Of a DNA stretch of 64,000 nucleotides, positions 3,626-29,273 are shown in pieces; the first letter of the stretch is position 1; the number at the start of each line of letters is the position of its first letter. The translations under genes and the position numbers were made by a program. Under the pieces are notes generated by a model. It saw nothing but the letters and a program-made list of their open reading frames with translations, did not search any database and was not told where the DNA came from. This DNA is from OCS155 cluster bacterium AG-426-D23 (GTDB lineage: Bacteria; Actinomycetota; Acidimicrobiia; Actinomarinales; Actinomarinaceae), in the NCBI GenBank assembly GCA_003213165.1, contig QCNO01000001.1, positions 65,152 to 129,151 of the forward strand, in the 5' to 3' direction.

Positions 3626-5253
3626 TGCAGTATTTTTTTGTATATCTTTTTATTATAATCCTGAATATTGTTGCAGTCCTTGCAGTCCTAAGGGTTAGAA
3701 GAAAAAGACAGAATGATCCAAATGTCATCACTGATGTTCAAGATAGTGATCTTATTTACGATTCAGATCTTGAAGACGAAGTAAAAAAACCACGCTTTTC
3801 GAGATTTTCTAGAAAAAGTAATAATTTAACTGTTGGTTTTAACGATATAGCAATAGATGATAGAGAATTTGTTTATGGAGGAGATTTACTAGACCTTGCT
3901 GTTGAAAAAGAAGTAATCAAGAAAAAGGGAACATGGTATTTATATGAAAATGAAAAGATTGCTTATGGAAAACAAAAGGCAAAGTTTTTCTTATTAGAAA
4001 ATCCTGACATCGCTAATGAGATTAGCAATATAGTTTATGGAACCATACAGGTACAAAATAATGAGATGAGTTCTGAAGAGAGTTCAGATGAAATTTCTAT
4101 AAATAACAATGAAATAGAAAATCAAAAATCTGTAAATTTACTTACACAAGAATACGAAGTTGAGCTTGCTGAAGTTTATATAAAATCAAATACTTTAAAA
4201 AAAATCATTGAAAATACAATTGGGACAGAAGTCTTAATAAGTATCGATATTGGTAAAAAATTTAATCCAGTATTAAATTCTAAAAATTACCTTACAGAAG
4301 TAACAGGCATGTTGAATGAAATGGATTACATGATTGCAGCTGTAGAAAATGTAAGTAAAAACTCAAAATATTTAGGAATCGAAGTAAATGAAGAGCTTTT
4401 AAGAGAAAGACTTAACTTATTAATGTCGAGTCGTTTTACAATTTTATTTACTAAGAAGCCAGTAAGTAAACACCTTTCTTTACCAAGTTTAAATTTCAAC
4501 AACAGAGTAAGCACAGTAACCAGACAGAAATCTGGCTATGTAACAAATAGTGGACGAAGACCTGGGATTGTTCCACTTGGACTTGGCTTATTGATAGCTG
4601 GTCTTCTAGTAATTATTTATTCAATAAGTCAAACTTTTTTCTCAATGTCAGTATTAGATGATGAGCAAAATTTACTTAGTGTCAAATATCAACAAAACCA
4701 GAATATTTCACTTGAAGAATTGCGATCTATAAATTCAAATTCTTTAGAAACAAATGTATCACTTGATGAAACAGGGGAGTTTCAAGAATCCGTTCTAAGT
4801 CTTGTTAGCAAAACAATGAGAAACACAAATGCCAATGAGGAGTTTCTTCCTGATGTTGTAGGAAGATTAATAATATTCCCATCAAATATTGACCACTATG
4901 TTGTTTACGGTTCGAGCTTAGAAAAATTAGAGTTTGGTCCTGGTTATTATCTATCTACAGCTCTTCCAGGAACGGGTGGAAATTTTGCTATTGCCGGGCA
5001 CAGAACTACTTACGGTGCCCCATTTAAAAATTTAGATAAACTTGAACCCGGAGATAACATATACTTTCAAACTAATTCAAACCAATATACATATACGGTG
5101 AGTGAGATAAAAATTGTGGATCCAAGTGAAACATATTTGTTATCTTCATTTGGAGATGACAGGATTACATTAACAACTTGTCACCCAAAATTCTCAGCTA
5201 GGCAAAGACTGGTTGTTGTAGGTATGTTGACAAAAATTGAGGTATTTGGATGA
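3625..5253 (+). CDS. Sortase (class-E-like catalytic domain) with an N-terminal TM helix and a long cytoplasmic extension carrying a RecA C-terminal-domain-like segment
   Basis: The C-terminal ~130 aa carry the sortase triad context AIAGHR ... LTTCHP ... ARQRL. TM helices lie at aa 4-22 and ~315-338. aa 81-138 resemble the RecA C-terminal domain. The GTG start overlaps the upstream TAG stop (TAGTG). Confidence 0.85.
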   Translation: MQYFFVYLFIIILNIVAVLAVLRVRRKRQNDPNVITDVQDSDLIYDSDLEDEVKKPRFSRFSRKSNNLTVGFNDIAIDDREFVYGGDLLDLAVEKEVIKKKGTWYLYENEKIAYGKQKAKFFLLENPDIANEISNIVYGTIQVQNNEMSSEESSDEISINNNEIENQKSVNLLTQEYEVELAEVYIKSNTLKKIIENTIGTEVLISIDIGKKFNPVLNSKNYLTEVTGMLNEMDYMIAAVENVSKNSKYLGIEVNEELLRERLNLLMSSRFTILFTKKPVSKHLSLPSLNFNNRVSTVTRQKSGYVTNSGRRPGIVPLGLGLLIAGLLVIIYSISQTFFSMSVLDDEQNLLSVKYQQNQNISLEELRSINSNSLETNVSLDETGEFQESVLSLVSKTMRNTNANEEFLPDVVGRLIIFPSNIDHYVVYGSSLEKLEFGPGYYLSTALPGTGGNFAIAGHRTTYGAPFKNLDKLEPGDNIYFQTNSNQYTYTVSEIKIVDPSETYLLSSFGDDRITLTTCHPKFSARQRLVVVGMLTKIEVFG

Positions 5254-21726: not shown

Positions 21727-22556
21727 TGTCGTCACTTCTAGCATTTCACGCTCACCCTGATGATGAGAGCGTCTCGACTGGAGTTACGCTAGCAAAATAT
21801 GCAGACGAAGGTCACAGAGTTGTAGTAGCTACTGCAACCGATGGTTCTGCTGGTGAAATTCATAACTACGATAATCCAGAAGAGCTTTTCCCTAAACTCG
21901 CTGAAATGAGAAGAAAAGAGTTAGAGGCAAGCCTTGAAGCTCTTGGTGTAAAAGAGTATGAGTGGATGGGTTTTAAAGATTCTGGAATGATGGGTACTAG
22001 TGAAAATGATGATCCAGATTGTTTCTGGAGACAGAACTATTTTGATCCTGTAGGAAAATTAGTCGACATAATTAGAAAATATAAACCTGATGCTTTAATC
22101 ACATATGACCCTTTTGGAGGTTATGGTCATCCAGATCATATTCAGACACATAGAATCGGAACCGCAGCCTTCTTTGCAGCTAGTGATTTAGATAAATTTC
22201 CTCTAAAAGATAGTCAAGAAGTATGGATTCCAAAGCGTTTGTATTACAGTGCCTGGTCTAAAAAAAGAATGCAATCTAGAAGACAACAGATGTTTGATGC
22301 TGGAATTATTTCAGAAGAAGAATTTAACAGATTTAACCCAATTGGTAGTGAACATGATGATATAGATGTTGAAGTTGATGGAACAAAGTATGTTGAACAT
22401 AAAATTAAATCGATGAAAGCTCATCGAAGTCAGTTTAAAGATGACTGGTGGGGTTTTAATATTCCAGATGAATTTAAAGAGGATTTTTTAGGATATGAAA
22501 ACTACATACTAGCTTTCAATAGAGGGTCTTGGTCTTCAGAAACAGATTTAATCTAA
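21726..22556 (+). CDS. PIG-L/LmbE-family N-acetylglucosaminyl deacetylase (MshB/Mca-like)
   Basis: AHPDDES zinc motif near the N-terminus and a downstream GHPDH motif. TAATG junction with atpC. Confidence 0.85.
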   Translation: MSSLLAFHAHPDDESVSTGVTLAKYADEGHRVVVATATDGSAGEIHNYDNPEELFPKLAEMRRKELEASLEALGVKEYEWMGFKDSGMMGTSENDDPDCFWRQNYFDPVGKLVDIIRKYKPDALITYDPFGGYGHPDHIQTHRIGTAAFFAASDLDKFPLKDSQEVWIPKRLYYSAWSKKRMQSRRQQMFDAGIISEEEFNRFNPIGSEHDDIDVEVDGTKYVEHKIKSMKAHRSQFKDDWWGFNIPDEFKEDFLGYENYILAFNRGSWSSETDLI

Positions 22557-22585
22557 AAAAAGTCATTAACTTAACGTATATTTTT

Positions 22586-22607
22586 TGTTTACTTTGTGTT
22601 TACCTGT
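22586..22607 (+). promoter_or_regulatory. Candidate Pho box: two 11-nt direct repeats, TGTTTACTTTG and TGTTTACCTGT
   Basis: TGTTTAC occurs at 22586 and again at 22597, exactly 11 nt apart, about 55-70 nt upstream of the pstS ATG. It resembles AT-shifted actinobacterial PhoP repeat units (GTTCAYYYRSG). Confidence 0.5.
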
Positions 22608-22658: not shown

Positions 22659-24512
22659 ATGATTAGATCAAAATCTAAATTCTGGTCTTTGCTTCTTGTG
22701 ATGGTACTTGTCCTTGCTGCCTGTGGTGGTGGTAGCGACGATGCTGCTGAAGAAACTGAAGAATCAGGCGGAGAAGAGTCAGTTACTCAAACAACTGCTG
22801 CATCTTCTTCCGGTGGATCATCAAGTTCAGACTCAGGTCTGACTGGTGAAATCTTAATCGATGGATCTTCAACCGTGTTCCCTATAACACAAGCTGTAGC
22901 TGAAGAATTTACAGCTGTTAACCCAGGTGTTCAAATATCTGTTGGTGTTTCAGGAACTGGTGGAGGATTCAAGAAATTTTGTCCTGGAGAAACAGATATA
23001 TCTGATGCTTCAAGACCTATTAAAGCCAAAGAGAGAGATCTCTGTGCAGAAAATGGTACTACATACACTGAACTTCAAGTTGGTGTAGACGCACTTTCAG
23101 TTGTTGTTCCAACATCAAATGATTTTGCAACATGTCTAACAACTGAAGAGTTAGGTGCTATATGGGGTGCAGACAGCACAGTTTCAAATTGGAATCAAGT
23201 TAGAAGCTCTTTCCCAGATGTTGCACTTGACCTTTATGGTCCTGGTACTGACTCTGGAACTTTTGACTTCTTCAATGAAGAAATTACTGAAGACTTGGGC
23301 GGTAGCCGTTCCGACTACACAGCATCCGAAGATGACAACGTTCTTGTGAACGGTGTATCTGGATCAGCTGGTGGTTTAGGATACTTTGGACTCGCATATT
23401 ATGAAGAGAACAAAGACAAGCTTACTGCTGTTCAAGTAGATGCTGGAGATGGATGTGTTGGTCCAGAAGGTGCCTTTACTGGTACATACGGACTTGCAAG
23501 ACCATTATTTATTTATGTAAATGATGCAAAAGCAAATGATCCAGTCATCAAAGCTTTTGTCGATTTCTACTTTGACTCATTAGATCCAATTGTAGAAGCT
23601 GTTGGTTACATTCCAATGTTGCCAGACGCTGCTGCAAGACAATTAGAGTATTGGCAAGTTGTTACAGGAAAACCACTGTCTGGTGAAATCTTAATTGATG
23701 GTTCATCAACTGTTTTCCCTATTACCCAGGCTGTAGCAGAAGAGTTCACAGCAGTGCATCCTAATGTCAACATTTCTGTTGGTGTTTCAGGAACTGGTGG
23801 AGGATTCAAAAAATTCTGCCCTGGTGAAACAATGATTTCAGATGCTTCTCGTCCAATCAAAGACAAAGAGAAAGCATTATGTGAAGAAAACGGAGTTAAC
23901 TATTTAGAAGTACAAGTAGGTATTGATGCACTTTCAGTTGTTGTTCCAACATCAAATGACTGGGCTACATGTCTTACAACTGCTGAACTTACTTCAATTT
24001 GGGGTGCAGACAGCACTATTTCAAACTGGAGCCAAGTAAGAGCAGGCTTCCCAGACGTAGCACTTGACCTTTATGGTCCTGGTACTGACTCTGGAACTTT
24101 TGACTTCTTCAATGAAGAGTTAACAGAAGATAATGGCGGTAGTCGTTCCGACTACACAGCATCCGAAGATGACAACGTTCTTGTGAACGGTGTATCTGGA
24201 TCAGCTGGTGGTTTAGGATACTTTGGACTCGCATATTATGAAGAGAACAAAGACAAGCTTACTGCTGTTCAAGTAGATGCTGGAGATGGGTGTCAACCAC
24301 CTGAAGCAGCATTTGAAGGAAATTATTTCTTAGCAAGACCACTTTTCATCTATATAGCTGAGTCTGCAAAAGGAATGTCTGCAGTTAGAGAATTCGTCGA
24401 TTTCTACTTTGTAGCTATGGACGCGATTGTACCTGCAGTAGGTTATGTACCTATGTTAGCTGAACAAAAAATGGCATCATTAATGTCATGGTCAGCATTT
24501 AGTAGGGGATAG
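22659..24512 (+). CDS. pstS: Phosphate ABC transporter substrate-binding lipoprotein with two tandem full-length PstS domains
   Basis: Lipobox LVLAAC and a Ser/Gly/Glu linker. Domain 1 (aa 63-341) and domain 2 (aa 342-617) both begin [25 protein letters not shown]...[23 protein letters not shown]. Confidence 0.93.
22845..24509 (+). repeat. Intragenic tandem duplication, 2 x ~837 nt, forming the two PstS domains
   Basis: The offset is exactly 837 nt. Perfectly identical blocks 23224..23281 = 24061..24118 (58 nt) and 23307..23452 = 24144..24289 (146 nt) are embedded in clearly diverged sequence. Confidence 0.95.
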
Positions 24513-24535
24513 TCACTTTAATTAAAAAATAGTAA

Positions 24536-24563
24536 TTTGTGAGGGCAGAATTGCCCTCACAAA
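24536..24563 (+). terminator. Intercistronic hairpin between pstS and pstC (partial terminator or mRNA stabiliser)
   Basis: Perfect 12-bp inverted repeat TTTGTGAGGGCA-gaat-TGCCCTCACAAA located 24 nt after the pstS stop. There is no strong downstream T-tract. Confidence 0.6.
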
Positions 24564-24584
24564 CTACAATAAAAATATCAAATT

Positions 24585-25514
24585 ATGGAAAATGTAAACA
24601 ACCTTCGTAGCCAACTTACGAAAACGATTACACGTCCTATTGAAAAAATTGTAAAATTATTTATTACAGCCTCTGCATTTGCCGCAATACTTATATCCAT
24701 CTCAATTATTTTCACATTATTAACTGAAGCTATTAATTTTTTTCAAGATCCAGCAGTAACTTTTAAAGGGTATTTCACTGCAACTAGGTGGACTCCTACT
24801 TTCCAAAATCCCGAATACGGTGTTATTGTTTTGATTTCCTCAACTCTCTACATAGCTGTTATTGCTTGTCTCATTTCTTTTCCTTTAGGGTTATTTTCAG
24901 CTATATATTTATCTGAATTTGCAACAAGAAGAACTAGAAAAGTAATCAAACCAGTCTTAGAAGTATTAGCAGGTGTTCCTACAGTAGTATTTGGTTACTT
25001 CGCACTTAACTGGATTACTCCGAATATAATCCAGAGATTTATTCCTGGTACGGGAGTATTTAATGCTTTGTCTGCTGGTATCGCTGTTGGTATCATGATA
25101 ATTCCTACAGTCGCCTCTATCTCTGATGACGCTCTCAATGCGGTTCCAAATTCTTTGAGAAATGGGTCATTAGCACTTGGTGCTACTAGAAGAATTACAT
25201 CACTTAAAATTATGTTTCCTGCAGCTCTGTCAGGAATTATTGCTTCGTTTATATTAGGTTTTTCAAGGGCTATAGGCGAGACAATGATTGTGACCATTGC
25301 AGGAGGGCAGTATCCTGAATTAAATTTAGATCCTAGAAGTGCAATGTACACGATAACTTCTTCAATAGTAAATGTATCCCTTGGTGACACACCTCATGGC
25401 ACTACGGCTTATAATGCTTTATTCGCACTTGGTATAACTTTATTTATTATGACTTTTATTTTGAATATAGGTTCTGATTATGTTGCCAGAAAGTATAGAA
25501 AAGAATATGAGTAA
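24585..25514 (+). CDS. pstC: Phosphate ABC transporter permease PstC
   Basis: Six-TM permease with the EAA-like loop (SLALGATRR.T..KI..P) directly after pstS. Confidence 0.94.
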   Translation: MENVNNLRSQLTKTITRPIEKIVKLFITASAFAAILISISIIFTLLTEAINFFQDPAVTFKGYFTATRWTPTFQNPEYGVIVLISSTLYIAVIACLISFPLGLFSAIYLSEFATRRTRKVIKPVLEVLAGVPTVVFGYFALNWITPNIIQRFIPGTGVFNALSAGIAVGIMIIPTVASISDDALNAVPNSLRNGSLALGATRRITSLKIMFPAALSGIIASFILGFSRAIGETMIVTIAGGQYPELNLDPRSAMYTITSSIVNVSLGDTPHGTTAYNALFALGITLFIMTFILNIGSDYVARKYRKEYE

Positions 25515-26427
25515 CGAAACACTTATAACCGGCAAGAAAGCTGAAAATGCTATCAAAGAAAGTTTATTCCTCTTTACATTATATATATGTGTAACGATTG
25601 CTATTTTAACTTTGATGACCTTAATCTATGATGTTCTTTCAACTGGAATTACAAGATTGACATCAGACTACGAAGTTGGCCTCATTACAAAAATACAAAT
25701 TGATAATCCTGTAGACTTTTTAACAACATTAGACTCACGATATCCAGATAGAGCTGGTATCGGCCCCGCTTTTGCTGGGACAGTATGGCTTATGATAATA
25801 GTTGTTTTTGTAACATTTCCTTTTGGTACAGGAGCGGCAATATATCTTCAAGAATTTGCCCCAAAAAATAGATTAACAAGGTTTATTGAATTAAATTTAA
25901 CTAACTTAGCAGGAGTCCCTTCTGTTATTTATGGTCTACTAGGGCTCGCGGTGTTTGTACGTTTAGCTGGATTTGGAAGATCTGTTCTTTCAGGTGGGTT
26001 AACATTAACGTTACTAATTCTTCCAGTTGTCATTGTGGCATCTAGAGAGGCTCTTAAGGCTGTTCCAGACACAATACGCCAGGGTGCTTTAGCACTTGGA
26101 GCTACCAAATTTCAGGCAGTTTTTAGACAGGTTGTACCTTCTGCAATTCCAGGAATGGTAACTGGGATGGTCCTCGGACTCTCCCGAGCAATTGGAGAGA
26201 CTGCTCCATTAATTTTTATGGGTGCTTTGACTTATGTTAATTATTTTCCTGATACCCCTTTAAGTGGTTTTACTGCTATTCCAATCCAAGTCTATAACTG
26301 GATTGGATATCCTCAGGCTGAATGGAAGGAAACAGCTTCAGCTGGAATCATCTTACTTTTGGGTTTATTATTAATCATGAACTCATTAGCAATATTTATT
26401 AGAAACAGATACGAGAAGGATTTATAG
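25480..26427 (+). CDS. pstA: Phosphate ABC transporter permease PstA
   Basis: Permease with REALKAVPD..RQGALALGATKFQ. An alternative start is the ATG at 25507, which overlaps the pstC stop. Confidence 0.94.
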   Translation: MLPESIEKNMSNETLITGKKAENAIKESLFLFTLYICVTIAILTLMTLIYDVLSTGITRLTSDYEVGLITKIQIDNPVDFLTTLDSRYPDRAGIGPAFAGTVWLMIIVVFVTFPFGTGAAIYLQEFAPKNRLTRFIELNLTNLAGVPSVIYGLLGLAVFVRLAGFGRSVLSGGLTLTLLILPVVIVASREALKAVPDTIRQGALALGATKFQAVFRQVVPSAIPGMVTGMVLGLSRAIGETAPLIFMGALTYVNYFPDTPLSGFTAIPIQVYNWIGYPQAEWKETASAGIILLLGLLLIMNSLAIFIRNRYEKDL

Positions 26428-26451: not shown

Positions 26452-27261
26452 GTGGAAACTAAAGAAACAGTTCAGGTCAATAACGAAAGCGTATTTAATG
26501 TATCAGACCTATCTGTAAGTTACGGAGACTTTGTCGCAATCAAAAATGTAAATATGGATATTACTAAAAACAAAATCACTGCTTTTATTGGGCCCTCAGG
26601 TTGTGGAAAAAGCACATTAATAAGGACATTTAACAGGATGAATGATCTTATATTAGGTGCAAAAGTTAATGGAACAATAACATATCAGGGAGTTGATTTA
26701 TACGACAAAATGGTTGACCCAGTTCAGGTCAGAAGAAGAATTGGAATGGTTTTTCAAAAACCTAATCCATTCCCAAAAACTATAAAAGAGAATATTACTT
26801 TTGGACTTAAAGTTAACAACATGACTGATAACATGGATGATCGAGTTGAGAAAGCATTAACTCAAGCAGCATTATGGGATGAAGTTAAGGATGATTTAGA
26901 CAAAAATGCATTAGAACTATCTGGTGGCCAACAACAAAGATTATGCATTGCCAGGACAATTGCAGTTGAGCCAGATACAATTTTAATGGATGAGCCTTGC
27001 TCTGCATTAGACCCTGTAGCAACAAAAAAAATAGAAGACCTCATGCAAGAGCTTGTAAAAGAATTCTCAATACTTATTGTCACACACAACATGCAGCAAG
27101 CCTCTAGATCTTCTGATTACTGCGCATTTTTTACAACGAAAACCTCTGATGATGGAAAAAGAAGAACTGGAGAATTAGTTGAGTTCAATGAAACAAGTGT
27201 TATGTTTACTACTCCTGATAAGGAGTTAACAGAACAATATATATCAGGCAGGTTCGGATGA
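26452..27261 (+). CDS. pstB: Phosphate ABC transporter ATP-binding protein PstB
   Basis: Walker [10 protein letters not shown], signature LSGGQQQRL and Walker B ILMDEP. GTG start with an AAGGAG RBS. Confidence 0.97.
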
Positions 27262-27899
27262 GTTTACAGGAAAAGATTGAAAACCTTGAAACAGATCTAC
27301 ATTTAATGGGCAGGCTTGTTTTAGATGCTCTAGTAGATGGCGTTAGGGCTTTAGAGGATAAAGACGTTAATAGAGCAATAGCAACAATAGAAAAAGATGA
27401 TGAAATCGATGCGGCTTACCTTAAAATTGACCAAGACTGGGTTGAGCTTATGGCCACAGAGCAACTTGTAGCAACAGACTTAAGACTTTCTACATCTATT
27501 TTGCAAGCAAGTTTACACTTAGAGCGCCTTGGTGATTTGGCTGTTTATCTTGGAAATACAACAAAAGAAATTTTTGATTCACCAGTACCAGAGACAATAC
27601 ATGCAACTGTAGTAGAAATGGGGGATTTAGTAATTGATATGGCTTCCTCCGCAATGGAAAGTTTAAAAAATAGGGATAAAGACCTAGCTTTAGCAACAGC
27701 CGAAAAAGATAATCAGGTAAATAGACTATATAATTCAATGCTAGAAGAAGCACCAAAAATAGCTGGGAATGAAGATTTATTCAATGGATTATTCAGGCTT
27801 GTTACTTGTATAAGGACATTAGAGAGAGGTGGCGATCACGCAGTTGATATTTGTGAGTTAACACACTTTTTAGTAACCGGAGAATTTAAAGAATTTTAA
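27258..27899 (+). CDS. phoU: Phosphate signalling complex protein PhoU
   Basis: Two PhoU repeats with the E(R)xGD motifs LERLGDLAV and [14 protein letters not shown] overlap with pstB. Confidence 0.93.
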
Positions 27900-28591
27900 T
27901 GTCAGGCAAAATTTTATTAGTCGAAGATGAACACAGTATTGCCGATCCCGTAATTTACAATTTAAAACAAGAAGGTTTTTTTGTAACACATGTTGATGAA
28001 GGACCTATTGCTCTTGAAATATTCAGTGAAGAATCATTTGATTTAATTATTTTAGATTTAATGCTTCCAGAAATTTCAGGATTAGATATATGTAGGTCTA
28101 TTAGAAAAGAATCTGATGTGCCAATAATAATGGTTACCGCAAAAGACAGTGAAGCAGACAGAGTTTCAGGTCTAGAGCTAGGGGCTGATGATTATGTTAC
28201 TAAGCCTTTTTCTGTAAGAGAATTGATGAGCAGAGTTAGAGCTGTATTACGAAGAACAACAACAACAAAAACAAATAAGAATGATAAATCTATTAAATCT
28301 GGAAATATTGAAATTAATTTATCAAAGTATGAGGCTAAAGTAGATGATAAAAATATTGATTTAACACCAAGAGAATTTGAGCTCCTATATGCTTTTTGTG
28401 AAAATGAAGGTAATTTAATGTCTAGAGAGCAAATTTTCGATGAGATATGGGGCTATTCTTTTATTGGTAATACAAAAACACTTGATGTTCATATTCAAAG
28501 AATTAGAGAAAAAATTGAAAAAGATCCTAGAGAACCTAAAAGACTTATAACTGTTAGGGGCGTCGGATATAAATTAGTTACAGATGGATAA
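27899..28591 (+). CDS. OmpR/PhoB-family response regulator (PhoP/RegX3-like)
   Basis: Receiver domain (LLVEDE...ILDLMLP...KPF) plus a winged-helix output domain (LTPREFELL...RGVGYKL). TAATG junction with phoU. Confidence 0.92.
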   Translation: MSGKILLVEDEHSIADPVIYNLKQEGFFVTHVDEGPIALEIFSEESFDLIILDLMLPEISGLDICRSIRKESDVPIIMVTAKDSEADRVSGLELGADDYVTKPFSVRELMSRVRAVLRRTTTTKTNKNDKSIKSGNIEINLSKYEAKVDDKNIDLTPREFELLYAFCENEGNLMSREQIFDEIWGYSFIGNTKTLDVHIQRIREKIEKDPREPKRLITVRGVGYKLVTDG

Positions 28592-29273
28592 CAATTCTCA
28601 TAATATTGATAAATTAAAACAAGAATTTATTGCTAATGCATCTCATGAACTTAAAACTCCTGTTACTTCAATCCAACTGGCTGTTGAAACAGCTATAACT
28701 GCTTTAGAAAATTCAGAACTCGAAGATACAAGAAAATTTTTAAATCAAATTCTTAAAGATAGTCAAAGAATGACTTTGTTGCTTTCTGATTTACTAGACC
28801 TTTCTCAGCTTGAGGTCAACGATCCTGTAAAAGAAACAGTCAATTTGAAAAAGATAATTGAAGCTGAGATAGGATTTCTTTCTGAAGAAAATAAAAAAAG
28901 AGTGAATTTTGAATCTGCAGATATCGATTTTTTAATAGATCCAGATGATTTTTCAATGATTGTAAGGAATCTGTTGAGAAATGCCTGTAATTATTCTGAG
29001 CAAAACGAAAAAATTATTATAAATTTACTTCTTGATAATTCTGAAGTAATTCTATCTGTTTTAGATAAAGGAAGAGGCATTGCAATATCTGATCAAGAAA
29101 GGATATTTGAGAGATTTTATAGAGTTGATAAAGGAAGGTCTAGAGCTTTAGGCGGAACAGGAATTGGCTTATCTTTAGTTAAACATGCTGTAGAAAGAAA
29201 TAATGGTGATATCCAGCTAGAAAGTAAACTTGGAGAAGGTTCTGAGTTTGTAGTTAAATTTTTTAAAACTTAG
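28584..29273 (+). CDS. Minimal histidine kinase (DHp + catalytic ATPase domains only; no TM or sensor domain)
   Basis: The H-box FIANASHELKTP starts at aa ~15. N box LLRNACNYS; G boxes DKGRGI and GGTGIGLS. Only 229 aa. Overlaps the response-regulator gene by 8 nt. Confidence 0.88.
   Translation: MDNNSHNIDKLKQEFIANASHELKTPVTSIQLAVETAITALENSELEDTRKFLNQILKDSQRMTLLLSDLLDLSQLEVNDPVKETVNLKKIIEAEIGFLSEENKKRVNFESADIDFLIDPDDFSMIVRNLLRNACNYSEQNEKIIINLLLDNSEVILSVLDKGRGIAISDQERIFERFYRVDKGRSRALGGTGIGLSLVKHAVERNNGDIQLESKLGEGSEFVVKFFKT

Follow-up and report, generated by a model that had tools for sequence, protein, structure and literature searches.

How a single bacterial lipoprotein comes to carry two complete phosphate receptors, and why the DNA that encodes them is identical in some stretches and strongly diverged in others, is the question raised by the pstS gene of OCS155 cluster bacterium AG-426-D23. 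We examined this gene within a stretch of 64,000 nucleotides (nt) of the genome (contig QCNO01000001.1, positions 65,152 to 129,151), which we refer to as the window and by which all coordinates are numbered. The product of the double pstS would be the substrate-binding part of the PstSCAB high-affinity phosphate importer, in the form of one anchored chain bearing two Venus-flytrap receptors. On the comparisons described below, we consider it probable that this is a lipoprotein PstS with two equivalent phosphate heads, which arose through an old in-frame duplication, has been kept similar in part by ongoing gene conversion, and travels in a horizontally exchanged cassette.

Two PstS domains in one lipoprotein

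The pstS open reading frame (ORF; 22659-24512, + strand) starts with an ATG behind an AGGA ribosome-binding site and encodes 617 aa. A preliminary description of the locus had proposed that it holds two full-length PstS domains at an exact 837-nt offset. This is upheld by self-alignment, by a phmmer self-scan, which places two complete S-type PstS domains at aa 63-341 and aa 342-616, and by profile searches, in which Pfam PF12849 (220 bits) and NCBIfam TIGR02136 (510 bits against a cut-off of 206.6) each match the product in two stretches. Either half alone matches 4JWO, a phosphate-binding protein of Planctomyces (E=2.5e-75 for the first half and E=1.6e-75 for the second), and is a full member of the single-domain S-type PstS/SphX family (TIGR02136; 4JWO, 9JWY, 4Q8R, 4OMB). 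Unlike the single-domain proteins, the window chain carries both complete domains in one lipoprotein. The anchor-proximal copy, domain 1 (D1; aa 61-339, 22839..23675, +), is delimited by profile, 4JWO match, self-scan and structural model, and the anchor-distal copy, domain 2 (D2; aa 340-617 plus the stop codon, 23676..24512, +), by 4JWO match, self-scan and trees.

The two domains are joined head-to-tail, essentially without an added linker, at a junction (23655-23700) where D1 ends in QVVTGKP. AlphaFold2 folds both with confidence (predicted local distance difference test score, or pLDDT, of ~85-95) and leaves ~5 residues between the last helix of D1 (322-336) and the first strand of D2 (342-348), while residues 1-58 are predicted to be disordered (pLDDT <50). 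The signal peptide (22659..22724, +) ends in the lipobox LAAC, which satisfies the bacterial-lipoprotein pattern [LVI][ASTVI][GAS]C. Cys22 of this lipobox is invariant across 53 two-domain homologues and, judging from the motif, would be the lipidated N-terminus; it is followed by a tether of ~38 residues (aa 23-60; 22725..22838, +) that is rich in Ser/Gly/Glu/Thr and probably flexible, as indicated by its composition and by disorder prediction. In a fold search, the model matched single PstS structures, with 4JWO at a template modelling (TM) score of 0.89, and the sole two-domain entry was the tandem of substrate-binding domains (SBDs) of GlnPQ, SBD1-SBD2, at rank 15; no solved structure with tandem PstS was among these matches. 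The pstS stop codon lies at 24510-24512 and pstC is a separate ORF from 24585, so the binding domains are not fused to a membrane domain.

Related loci place the window in Candidatus Actinomarina (OCS155 marine Actinomycetota), which has ~1.1-Mb genomes of ~33% GC, and the closest of them is that of the single-cell amplified genome (SAG) AG-426-L21 (L003; 99%). As the preliminary description had suggested, we surveyed related genomes for single versus double PstS, with the search of Actinomarinales SAGs covering species representatives (of ~180 SAGs), and found both states. The same double pstS, with the same junction and the same atpDC / PIG-L / pstS-CAB / phoU context, is present in at least 10 independent assemblies, including the window, seven SAGs (L003-L009), a Tara scaffold (L001) and a GALA scaffold (L083), and it falls in protein clusters of 378 and 233 members. 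At the same position, loci L013-L019 instead have a single-domain pstS of 332-341 aa, among them L014 from the long-read metagenome-assembled genome (MAG) LRMED-058.

A mosaic internal repeat

Within the window, D1 and D2 align at an offset of exactly 837 nt with no indel, and 22830-23675 is 75% identical to its +837 counterpart. The similarity is unevenly distributed. Perfect runs at 22938-22972 (35 nt) and 23091-23122 (32 nt) confirm the short identical islands noted previously, and two larger runs lie at 23223-23281 (59 nt) and 23307-23452 (146 nt). The longer of these is exactly as first described, while the shorter, whose identity is likewise confirmed, begins one position earlier than was thought (23223 rather than 23224) and is thus 59 rather than 58 nt long. 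Together they delimit a conversion tract in D1 (23223..23452, +), which holds the codons of the DSGT pocket loop and of most of the C-lobe, and its partner in D2 (24060..24289, +); the 25-nt island between the two blocks contains 9 differences. On either side the copies are far apart, with synonymous divergence (dS) of 0.94 and nonsynonymous divergence (dN) of 0.14 in the 5' 318 nt, and saturated dS with dN of 0.51 in the last 186 nt. In a Sawyer-type permutation over five genomes (452 polymorphic columns), the observed maximum run was reached in 0/20,000 shuffles (P<5e-5). The 837-nt repeat is missed by Tandem Repeats Finder, whose period limit of 500 it exceeds.

Predicted phosphate binding and docking by the two heads

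The phosphate contacts of S-type proteins have been described for C. perfringens PBP-1 (Ser11, Thr12, Ser13, Ser41, Ser59, Ser129, Gly130 and Thr131; PMC5381212) and for CpPstS of SAR11 (Ser32, Ser33, Thr34, Thr61, Ser83, Gly174 and Thr175, with Pro169 replacing the classical Arg; PMC12421899), and an Asp-Arg-Thr triad has been described for SphX (PMC13614923). We mapped these positions by alignment to 4Q8R (PBP-1) and 9JWY (CpPstS). In D1 they correspond to S70, S71, T72, T100, S118, P195, S199, G200 and T201, together with the D144-R281 pair, and in D2 to the same residues at +279. All mapped residues agree between D1 and D2, do not vary in any Actinomarina copy, single-domain ones included, and are again invariant columns across the 53 two-domain homologues. 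The pocket is also identical to that of CpPstS (Ser-Ser-Thr, Thr, Ser, Gly-Thr, and Pro for the classical Arg), and by these alignments both heads carry the Arg-less phosphate pocket of the SAR11 type. The ratio dN/dS (omega) is 0.04-0.13 among D1 orthologues and 0.04-0.07 among D2 orthologues, indicating that both domains are under purifying selection.

The replacement of the phosphate-binding Arg by Pro (P195 at nt 23241-23243 and P474 at nt 24078-24080) is seen in double and single Actinomarina PstS alike, as in SAR11, where it has been associated with a larger cavity and with weak binding of organophosphate (PMC12421899). An Arg-less pocket may thus be common to unrelated streamlined marine oligotrophs.

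The part of the protein in which the two heads differ most is the C-terminal third of D1. D2 is similar to the single-domain orthologues from end to end, and over the C-terminal 73 residues it is 70-77% identical to them, compared with 54-58% for D1. From ~23453 onward, D1 differs from D2 with a dN of 0.49-0.51, yet omega between D1 orthologues is 0.04, which indicates a burst of amino-acid change followed by conservation. A foreign origin for this segment was considered and rejected: its identity to anything other than Actinomarina single-domain genes is at most 49%, and these genes are its best relatives.

Such a conserved, remodelled segment is what one might expect if the heads had been sub- or neo-functionalised, differing in ligand (phosphite, arsenate or organophosphate) or in affinity through their diverged thirds, and the capacity reported for the SAR11-type pocket leaves room for an organophosphate. 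The preliminary description had also raised different ligands or affinities for the two lobes, and had proposed comparing the binding-pocket residues of each half with PstS structures. This comparison finds the ligand residues of neither half lost, and different ligands are not supported, as the pocket is identical in both heads. Both the phosphate contacts and the Asp-Arg-Thr triad are shared by D1 and D2 and invariant in the single-domain orthologues. Moreover, the diverged segment is made up of the last strand and helices, through which D1 has to be joined to D2, and since the conversion tract covers the DSGT loop, that part of the pocket cannot diverge. We therefore regard functional divergence of the heads as improbable.

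We assign a similarly low probability to the proposal that D2 alone docks on PstCA, with D1 serving as a capture or storage head, or as a spacer that raises local phosphate or envelope reach. The overall likeness of D2 to the single-domain protein and the remodelled end of D1 speak for it, as does the finding that the tandem SBDs of GlnPQ are not equivalent in delivery (bioRxiv 10.1101/2020.12.19.423572). Against it stand the retained pocket and strong conservation of D1, and the possible identity of the docking surface in the two heads. Cryo-EM of the E. coli system, in which a single PstS docks per PstCA, shows contacts to PstC from C-lobe residues R134, G138, K167, P169, K175, R186, Y198, Q201 and N202 of PstS (PMC12976172). 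In a weak, motif-anchored profile alignment to E. coli PstS (probability 59%; S38=T100, D56=S118, R135=P195, T141=T201), these contacts map to aa 194-251 of the window protein, within its largest identical blocks (aa 189-208 and 217-265), so that the putative PstC-contact residues in the tract would be the same in both heads. Homogenisation would then possibly keep the docking C-lobe of both heads compatible with a single transporter.

In the arrangement that we prefer, with two equivalent heads, each domain would bind one phosphate and either might dock on PstCA. Two heads would double the receptor-to-transporter ratio and the local density of receptors at the membrane, and so could speed capture at nanomolar phosphate. 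Higher receptor density per transporter at very low phosphate is the most likely benefit, and a gain in capture sites per lipid anchor, as first envisaged for this protein, is plausible. Additional PstS is said to speed uptake in cyanophage-infected cells (as cited in PMC12379486).

Concerted evolution of the central segment

RecA-dependent gene conversion underlies the concerted evolution of tufA/tufB, rRNA operons and surface-protein repeats. To ask whether the two domains of the double pstS behave in the same way, we aligned all copies (D1, D2 and single-domain) by codon and compared site patterns, trees, dS and dN. The double alleles form two clades, A (with the window allele) and B (with the L008 allele), these two alleles being 88% identical to each other. 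We define a concerted site as one at which both domains share one base in one genome and both share another base in the other genome. Between the window and L008, four-taxon site patterns in the central segment (23159-23452) include ~29 concerted sites, mostly at third codon positions, versus 2 orthologous ones; outside this segment the proportions are reversed, with ~12 concerted versus 82 orthologous sites (Fisher P=1.3e-16). Examples at the protein level include Q/E in AVQVDAG, NWKDVRAG in both clade B domains, and, in L009 only, the replacement of D by N in D1 and D2 alike.

The same contrast is seen in neighbour-joining trees. In those of the 5' and 3' segments, D1 is monophyletic with 100% bootstrap, whereas that of the middle segment unites D1 with D2 within each allele clade (91% for clade A and 100% for clade B). 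Over 23157-23453, dS is 0.13-0.27 between paralogues versus 0.70-0.91 between clade A/B orthologues, and it is saturated against single-domain genes. Furthermore, the extent of the identical tracts varies by genome: 59+146 nt in the window, 53+150 nt in L004, and 123+60+86 nt in L008/L009. The preliminary proposal of an old duplication followed by intragenic gene conversion is therefore upheld by the concerted site patterns, the segment trees and the dS contrast, and we interpret the identical blocks as the product of recurrent intragenic conversion, which has homogenised the central ~230-300 nt of the two copies. A variable island that reads either EEITEDLGG or EELTEDNGG suggests that conversion ran both ways, both cases being found in metagenome scaffolds. 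That conversion lasts in the centre would be a self-sustaining effect: this is the most conserved stretch of the protein, its DNA diverges most slowly, and it would for this reason remain similar enough to serve as a recombination substrate.

In two metagenome assemblies, the repeat region has an unusual form. L002 (301-2076) has a 25-aa in-frame deletion inside the D1 conversion tract and a 3-aa DGC insertion in D2, and protein P0006 has an internal deletion. These variants could be real products of inter-repeat recombination or mis-assemblies.

Very few of our observations are accommodated by an assembly artefact, in which a single pstS was expanded, two separate genes were joined, or the blocks are a collapsed consensus. 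Short-read MAG contigs do break inside the gene (L010, L011, L020), and the odd in-frame changes just described, like the longest tracts, come from metagenome data. Yet the double pstS recurs with the same junction and synteny across SAGs, MAGs, scaffolds and large protein clusters, which rules out an artefact of a single assembly, in line with the preliminary view. Between the two copies, the flanking 5' and 3' thirds differ by 20-40%, and each of them is preserved from genome to genome. Within the block, SAGs L005 and L006 keep ~5 single-base differences between D1 and D2, so it is not collapsed by assemblers as a matter of course. We consider an artefact very unlikely. Least credible of all is very strong nucleotide-level constraint on the blocks (from RNA structure, translational or codon selection, or an embedded element), an early suggestion with which their position in the most conserved protein segment agrees, but which is excluded by the high dS of the same tract between orthologous double alleles and its saturation against single-domain orthologues, by the joint change of mostly third-position sites in both copies, and by tract boundaries that vary among genomes.

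Age and origin of the duplication

In our proposed history, the double pstS was produced by in-frame tandem duplication of an 837-nt mature-domain unit. Across the genomes compared, dS between D1 and D2 is 0.84-0.94 in the 5' flanking segment and saturated in the 3' segment. As this divergence equals or exceeds that between clades A and B, the duplication predates the clade A/B split, and on this evidence it is old. Because the two halves of the window protein and the Actinomarina single-domain genes are mutually closest, the duplication arose within Actinomarina. We also considered whether the single-domain genes are recent collapses, in which the 5' part of D1 was joined to the 3' part of D2, but in no tree do the single genes group with D1, and we rejected this reading.

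Exchange of the pst cassette between genomospecies

Using the genomospecies assignments in the supplementary table of the Actinomarinales genome paper (PMC7771536), we find clade A of the double pstS in G1.1, G2.2, G2.4 and G2.6, clade B in G1.1, and the single-domain gene in G1.3, G2.2 and G4.4. Double and single alleles thus coexist within G2.2, as represented by L003 and L017, respectively. In a sliding comparison with L017, the window is 93-98% identical across the atp operon and the PIG-L gene but only 61-79% identical from ~22,520 through pstSCAB, phoU and the regulator. This drop places the left breakpoint of the exchangeable cassette at approximately 22516..22560, where the PIG-L gene ends and the intergenic region starts. 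The reverse is seen between L017 and L019, which are 97-100% identical over the pst region and just 79-89% in the flanks. The window is 97-99.7% identical to L003 in pstS and 82-87% in pstC and pstA, and 90-97% identical to L018 in pstB-phoU only. The mosaic, as resolved with L003, L017, L019, L014 and L018, spans ~22516 to past 28500, its right boundary lying beyond the fetched loci. From these patterns, the pst cassette is a hotspot at which genomospecies and genera exchange DNA by homologous recombination, with the double pstS as one of its alleles.

A further exchanged patch adjoins the cassette. In the 3' half of the PIG-L gene (21900-22520), the window is 91-92% identical to L014, from which it is otherwise ~60-84% identical, and L008 and L018 are 93-97% identical.

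The distribution of double versus single alleles is incongruent with the genome phylogeny and is bounded by sharp identity breakpoints, the features by which flexible islands are recognised. In this respect the locus resembles the flexible phosphate islands of HIMB59 (PMC10734472), in which a pst operon at a fixed position occurs in alternative versions that do not follow the genomospecies phylogeny. Unlike those islands, the Actinomarina versions differ in the number of PstS domains rather than in accessory genes. In the genome paper on Actinomarinales, a cell-envelope island is the only one reported (PMC7771536). The seven double-allele SAGs of known provenance all come from the North Atlantic/Bermuda Atlantic Time-series Study (BATS), and the single-allele SAGs from 100 m depth or from the South Atlantic or South Pacific, a hint that the frequency of the two versions may track phosphate.

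Operon context and regulation

As in single-domain PstS systems, pstS heads a pstSCAB-phoU operon. The gene order is atpD, atpC, a PIG-L family deacetylase gene, pstS with its two domains, pstC (24585-25514, +), pstA (25480-26427, +), pstB (26452-27261, +), phoU (27258-27899, +), an OmpR/PhoB-type response regulator (27899-28591, +) and a minimal histidine kinase of 229 aa (28584-29273, +). The kinase beside this PhoB-like regulator consists of HisKA and HATPase only, with no transmembrane, PAS or other sensor domain. In enterobacteria, PhoU is reported to work via the PAS domain of PhoR, according to PMC13577022.

A Pho-box-like direct repeat, GTTTAC-N5-GTTTAC with an 11-nt period and followed by CTGTCAT, lies ~55 nt upstream of the pstS start (22587..22603, +) and may be bound by the adjacent OmpR-type regulator. 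The pattern has one match in the window versus 0.8 expected and is not significant alone; the repeat is kept upstream of pstS at all Actinomarina loci, double and single. A sigma-70 scan found no match on the + strand upstream of pstS. Between pstS and pstC is a stable stem-loop (24532..24567, +) with a 16-bp stem and no T-run on the + strand (dG -22.8 kcal/mol, z -7.8), which is also present after pstS at all Actinomarina loci. It is likely a partial terminator or an mRNA-stabilising element that would give more PstS than PstCAB, and together the repeat and the hairpin fit a Pho-regulated operon making excess PstS. In the single-domain cassette (L014 ~5070-5100, L016, L017), a second Pho-box-like repeat, ATTTACTTTCTATTTAC, follows the pstS hairpin and precedes pstC, while in the double-allele cassette only ~17 nt separate hairpin and pstC. 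The two versions of the cassette may thus differ in the transcription of pstCAB.

Multi-domain PstS and comparison with known systems

Outside Actinomarina, the architecture is widespread and is frequent in metagenomes, those of Chloroflexota among them. The best 120 database matches to the window protein are all two-domain (102 proteins) or three-domain (19 proteins) PstS, from carriers that include Dehalococcoides, other Chloroflexota and sponge-associated 'SphX'. They are 50-57% identical to the window protein, and their own sibling domains are 80-100% identical in 232/251 cases. In the three-domain proteins, domains cluster by position among close relatives and by lineage at deeper levels. 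The three-domain P0003-P0020 (~950 aa), ~100 two-domain proteins and locus L012 (3833-5824) have siblings that are mostly at least 90% identical within a protein. Homogenisation or repeated re-duplication looks general for multi-domain PstS. As alignment envelopes are not comparable between lineages, we make no claim about differences in linker length.

The Chloroflexota proteins (such as the 635-aa P0026 of Dehalococcoides mccartyi and the ~950-aa P0003-P0020) share with Actinomarina an architecture of two to three TIGR02136 domains. Their siblings are much more alike within a protein than between lineages, suggesting the same homogenising process; they differ in being mostly at least 90% identical, whereas the Actinomarina siblings form a mosaic with 78% identity. 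Matches of ~2.1 kb in the Methylophilaceae loci L063, L068 and L078 were considered as further fusions and rejected, because they consist of two adjacent, separate pstS genes. Such adjacent genes offer another way of raising PstS dosage. No description of tandem, fused, double or multidomain PstS was found in searches of the accessible literature, and databases label such proteins 'PstS family'. One paper that names both Actinomarina and PstS (PMC12379486) deals with a phage pstS.

Among structurally known importers, the closest parallel is GlnPQ (SBD1-SBD2; PDB 6H30), which likewise has two class-II binding domains in series on one polypeptide that serve one ABC translocator. The SBDs of GlnPQ differ in specificity and form one chain with the membrane domain. 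The window tandem, by contrast, is a separate lipoprotein, with a stop codon and a 72-nt spacer before pstC, its pockets are identical, and the structural similarity is low (TM 0.22-0.28).

As in concerted evolution of the tufA/tufB type, the paralogous segments are identical within a genome and diverged between genomes, in mosaic tracts with variable ends. What differs is that the partners are two domains of one ORF, 837 nt apart, and that about a third of the unit is converted while its ends have escaped.

Strength of the interpretation

Several observations weigh against the interpretation given here. Phosphate binding and docking by either domain are predictions from sequence, and the placement of the docking residues depends on a weak profile alignment. 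The inter-domain geometry in the AlphaFold model is unreliable (predicted TM, pTM, of 0.57), and we do not interpret the orientation; with D2 attached ~5 residues past the last helix of D1, access of D1 to PstCA is sterically questionable. The longest identical tracts (265 nt in L001 and 230 nt in L083) are in metagenome scaffolds, where a de Bruijn path switch could mimic extension. The age of the duplication relative to the single alleles is ambiguous: in the 5' segment, D1 and D2 group to the exclusion of the single genes with 43% support and D2 groups with them with 52%, while in the 3' segment D2 and the single genes have 86% bootstrap. Either the duplication is younger than the sampled single alleles, or it is older and D1 was lost in them. 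Moreover, pstS and pstCA alleles recombine independently, as the window and L003 illustrate, which weakens any argument for strict co-adaptation, and the biogeographic pattern rests on fewer than 20 genomes.

With these points in mind, a broader proposal can be put forward only tentatively, and we think it more apt to fail than to hold in full. Multi-headed PstS may be a recurrent, undescribed adaptation of anchor-dependent importers that arose independently in Actinomarina and in Chloroflexota (with two to three heads). Conversion would be favoured as it keeps the docking C-lobe and pocket of each head co-adapted to a single PstCA, and the double allele would be spreading horizontally in phosphate-starved basins such as the North Atlantic and the Mediterranean.

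Implications

For genomics, the repeat is a practical concern, as it breaks short-read MAG contigs and may yield mis-threaded gene models. For molecular evolution, the double pstS is an unusually clean natural case of bacterial intragenic concerted evolution, seen in wild genomes, in which the flanks have escaped and the core is homogenised. For the ecology of Actinomarina, growth over large areas of the surface ocean is limited by phosphate capture, the rate of which is set by PstS. A multi-headed receptor would shift the receptor-to-transporter ratio without extra genes or promoters, which is relevant in a streamlined genome of ~1.1 Mb. Since both the double and the single allele are found in one genomospecies and pass between genera, the junction between the two domains could serve as a marker with which to relate receptor multiplicity to phosphate scarcity in metagenomes.

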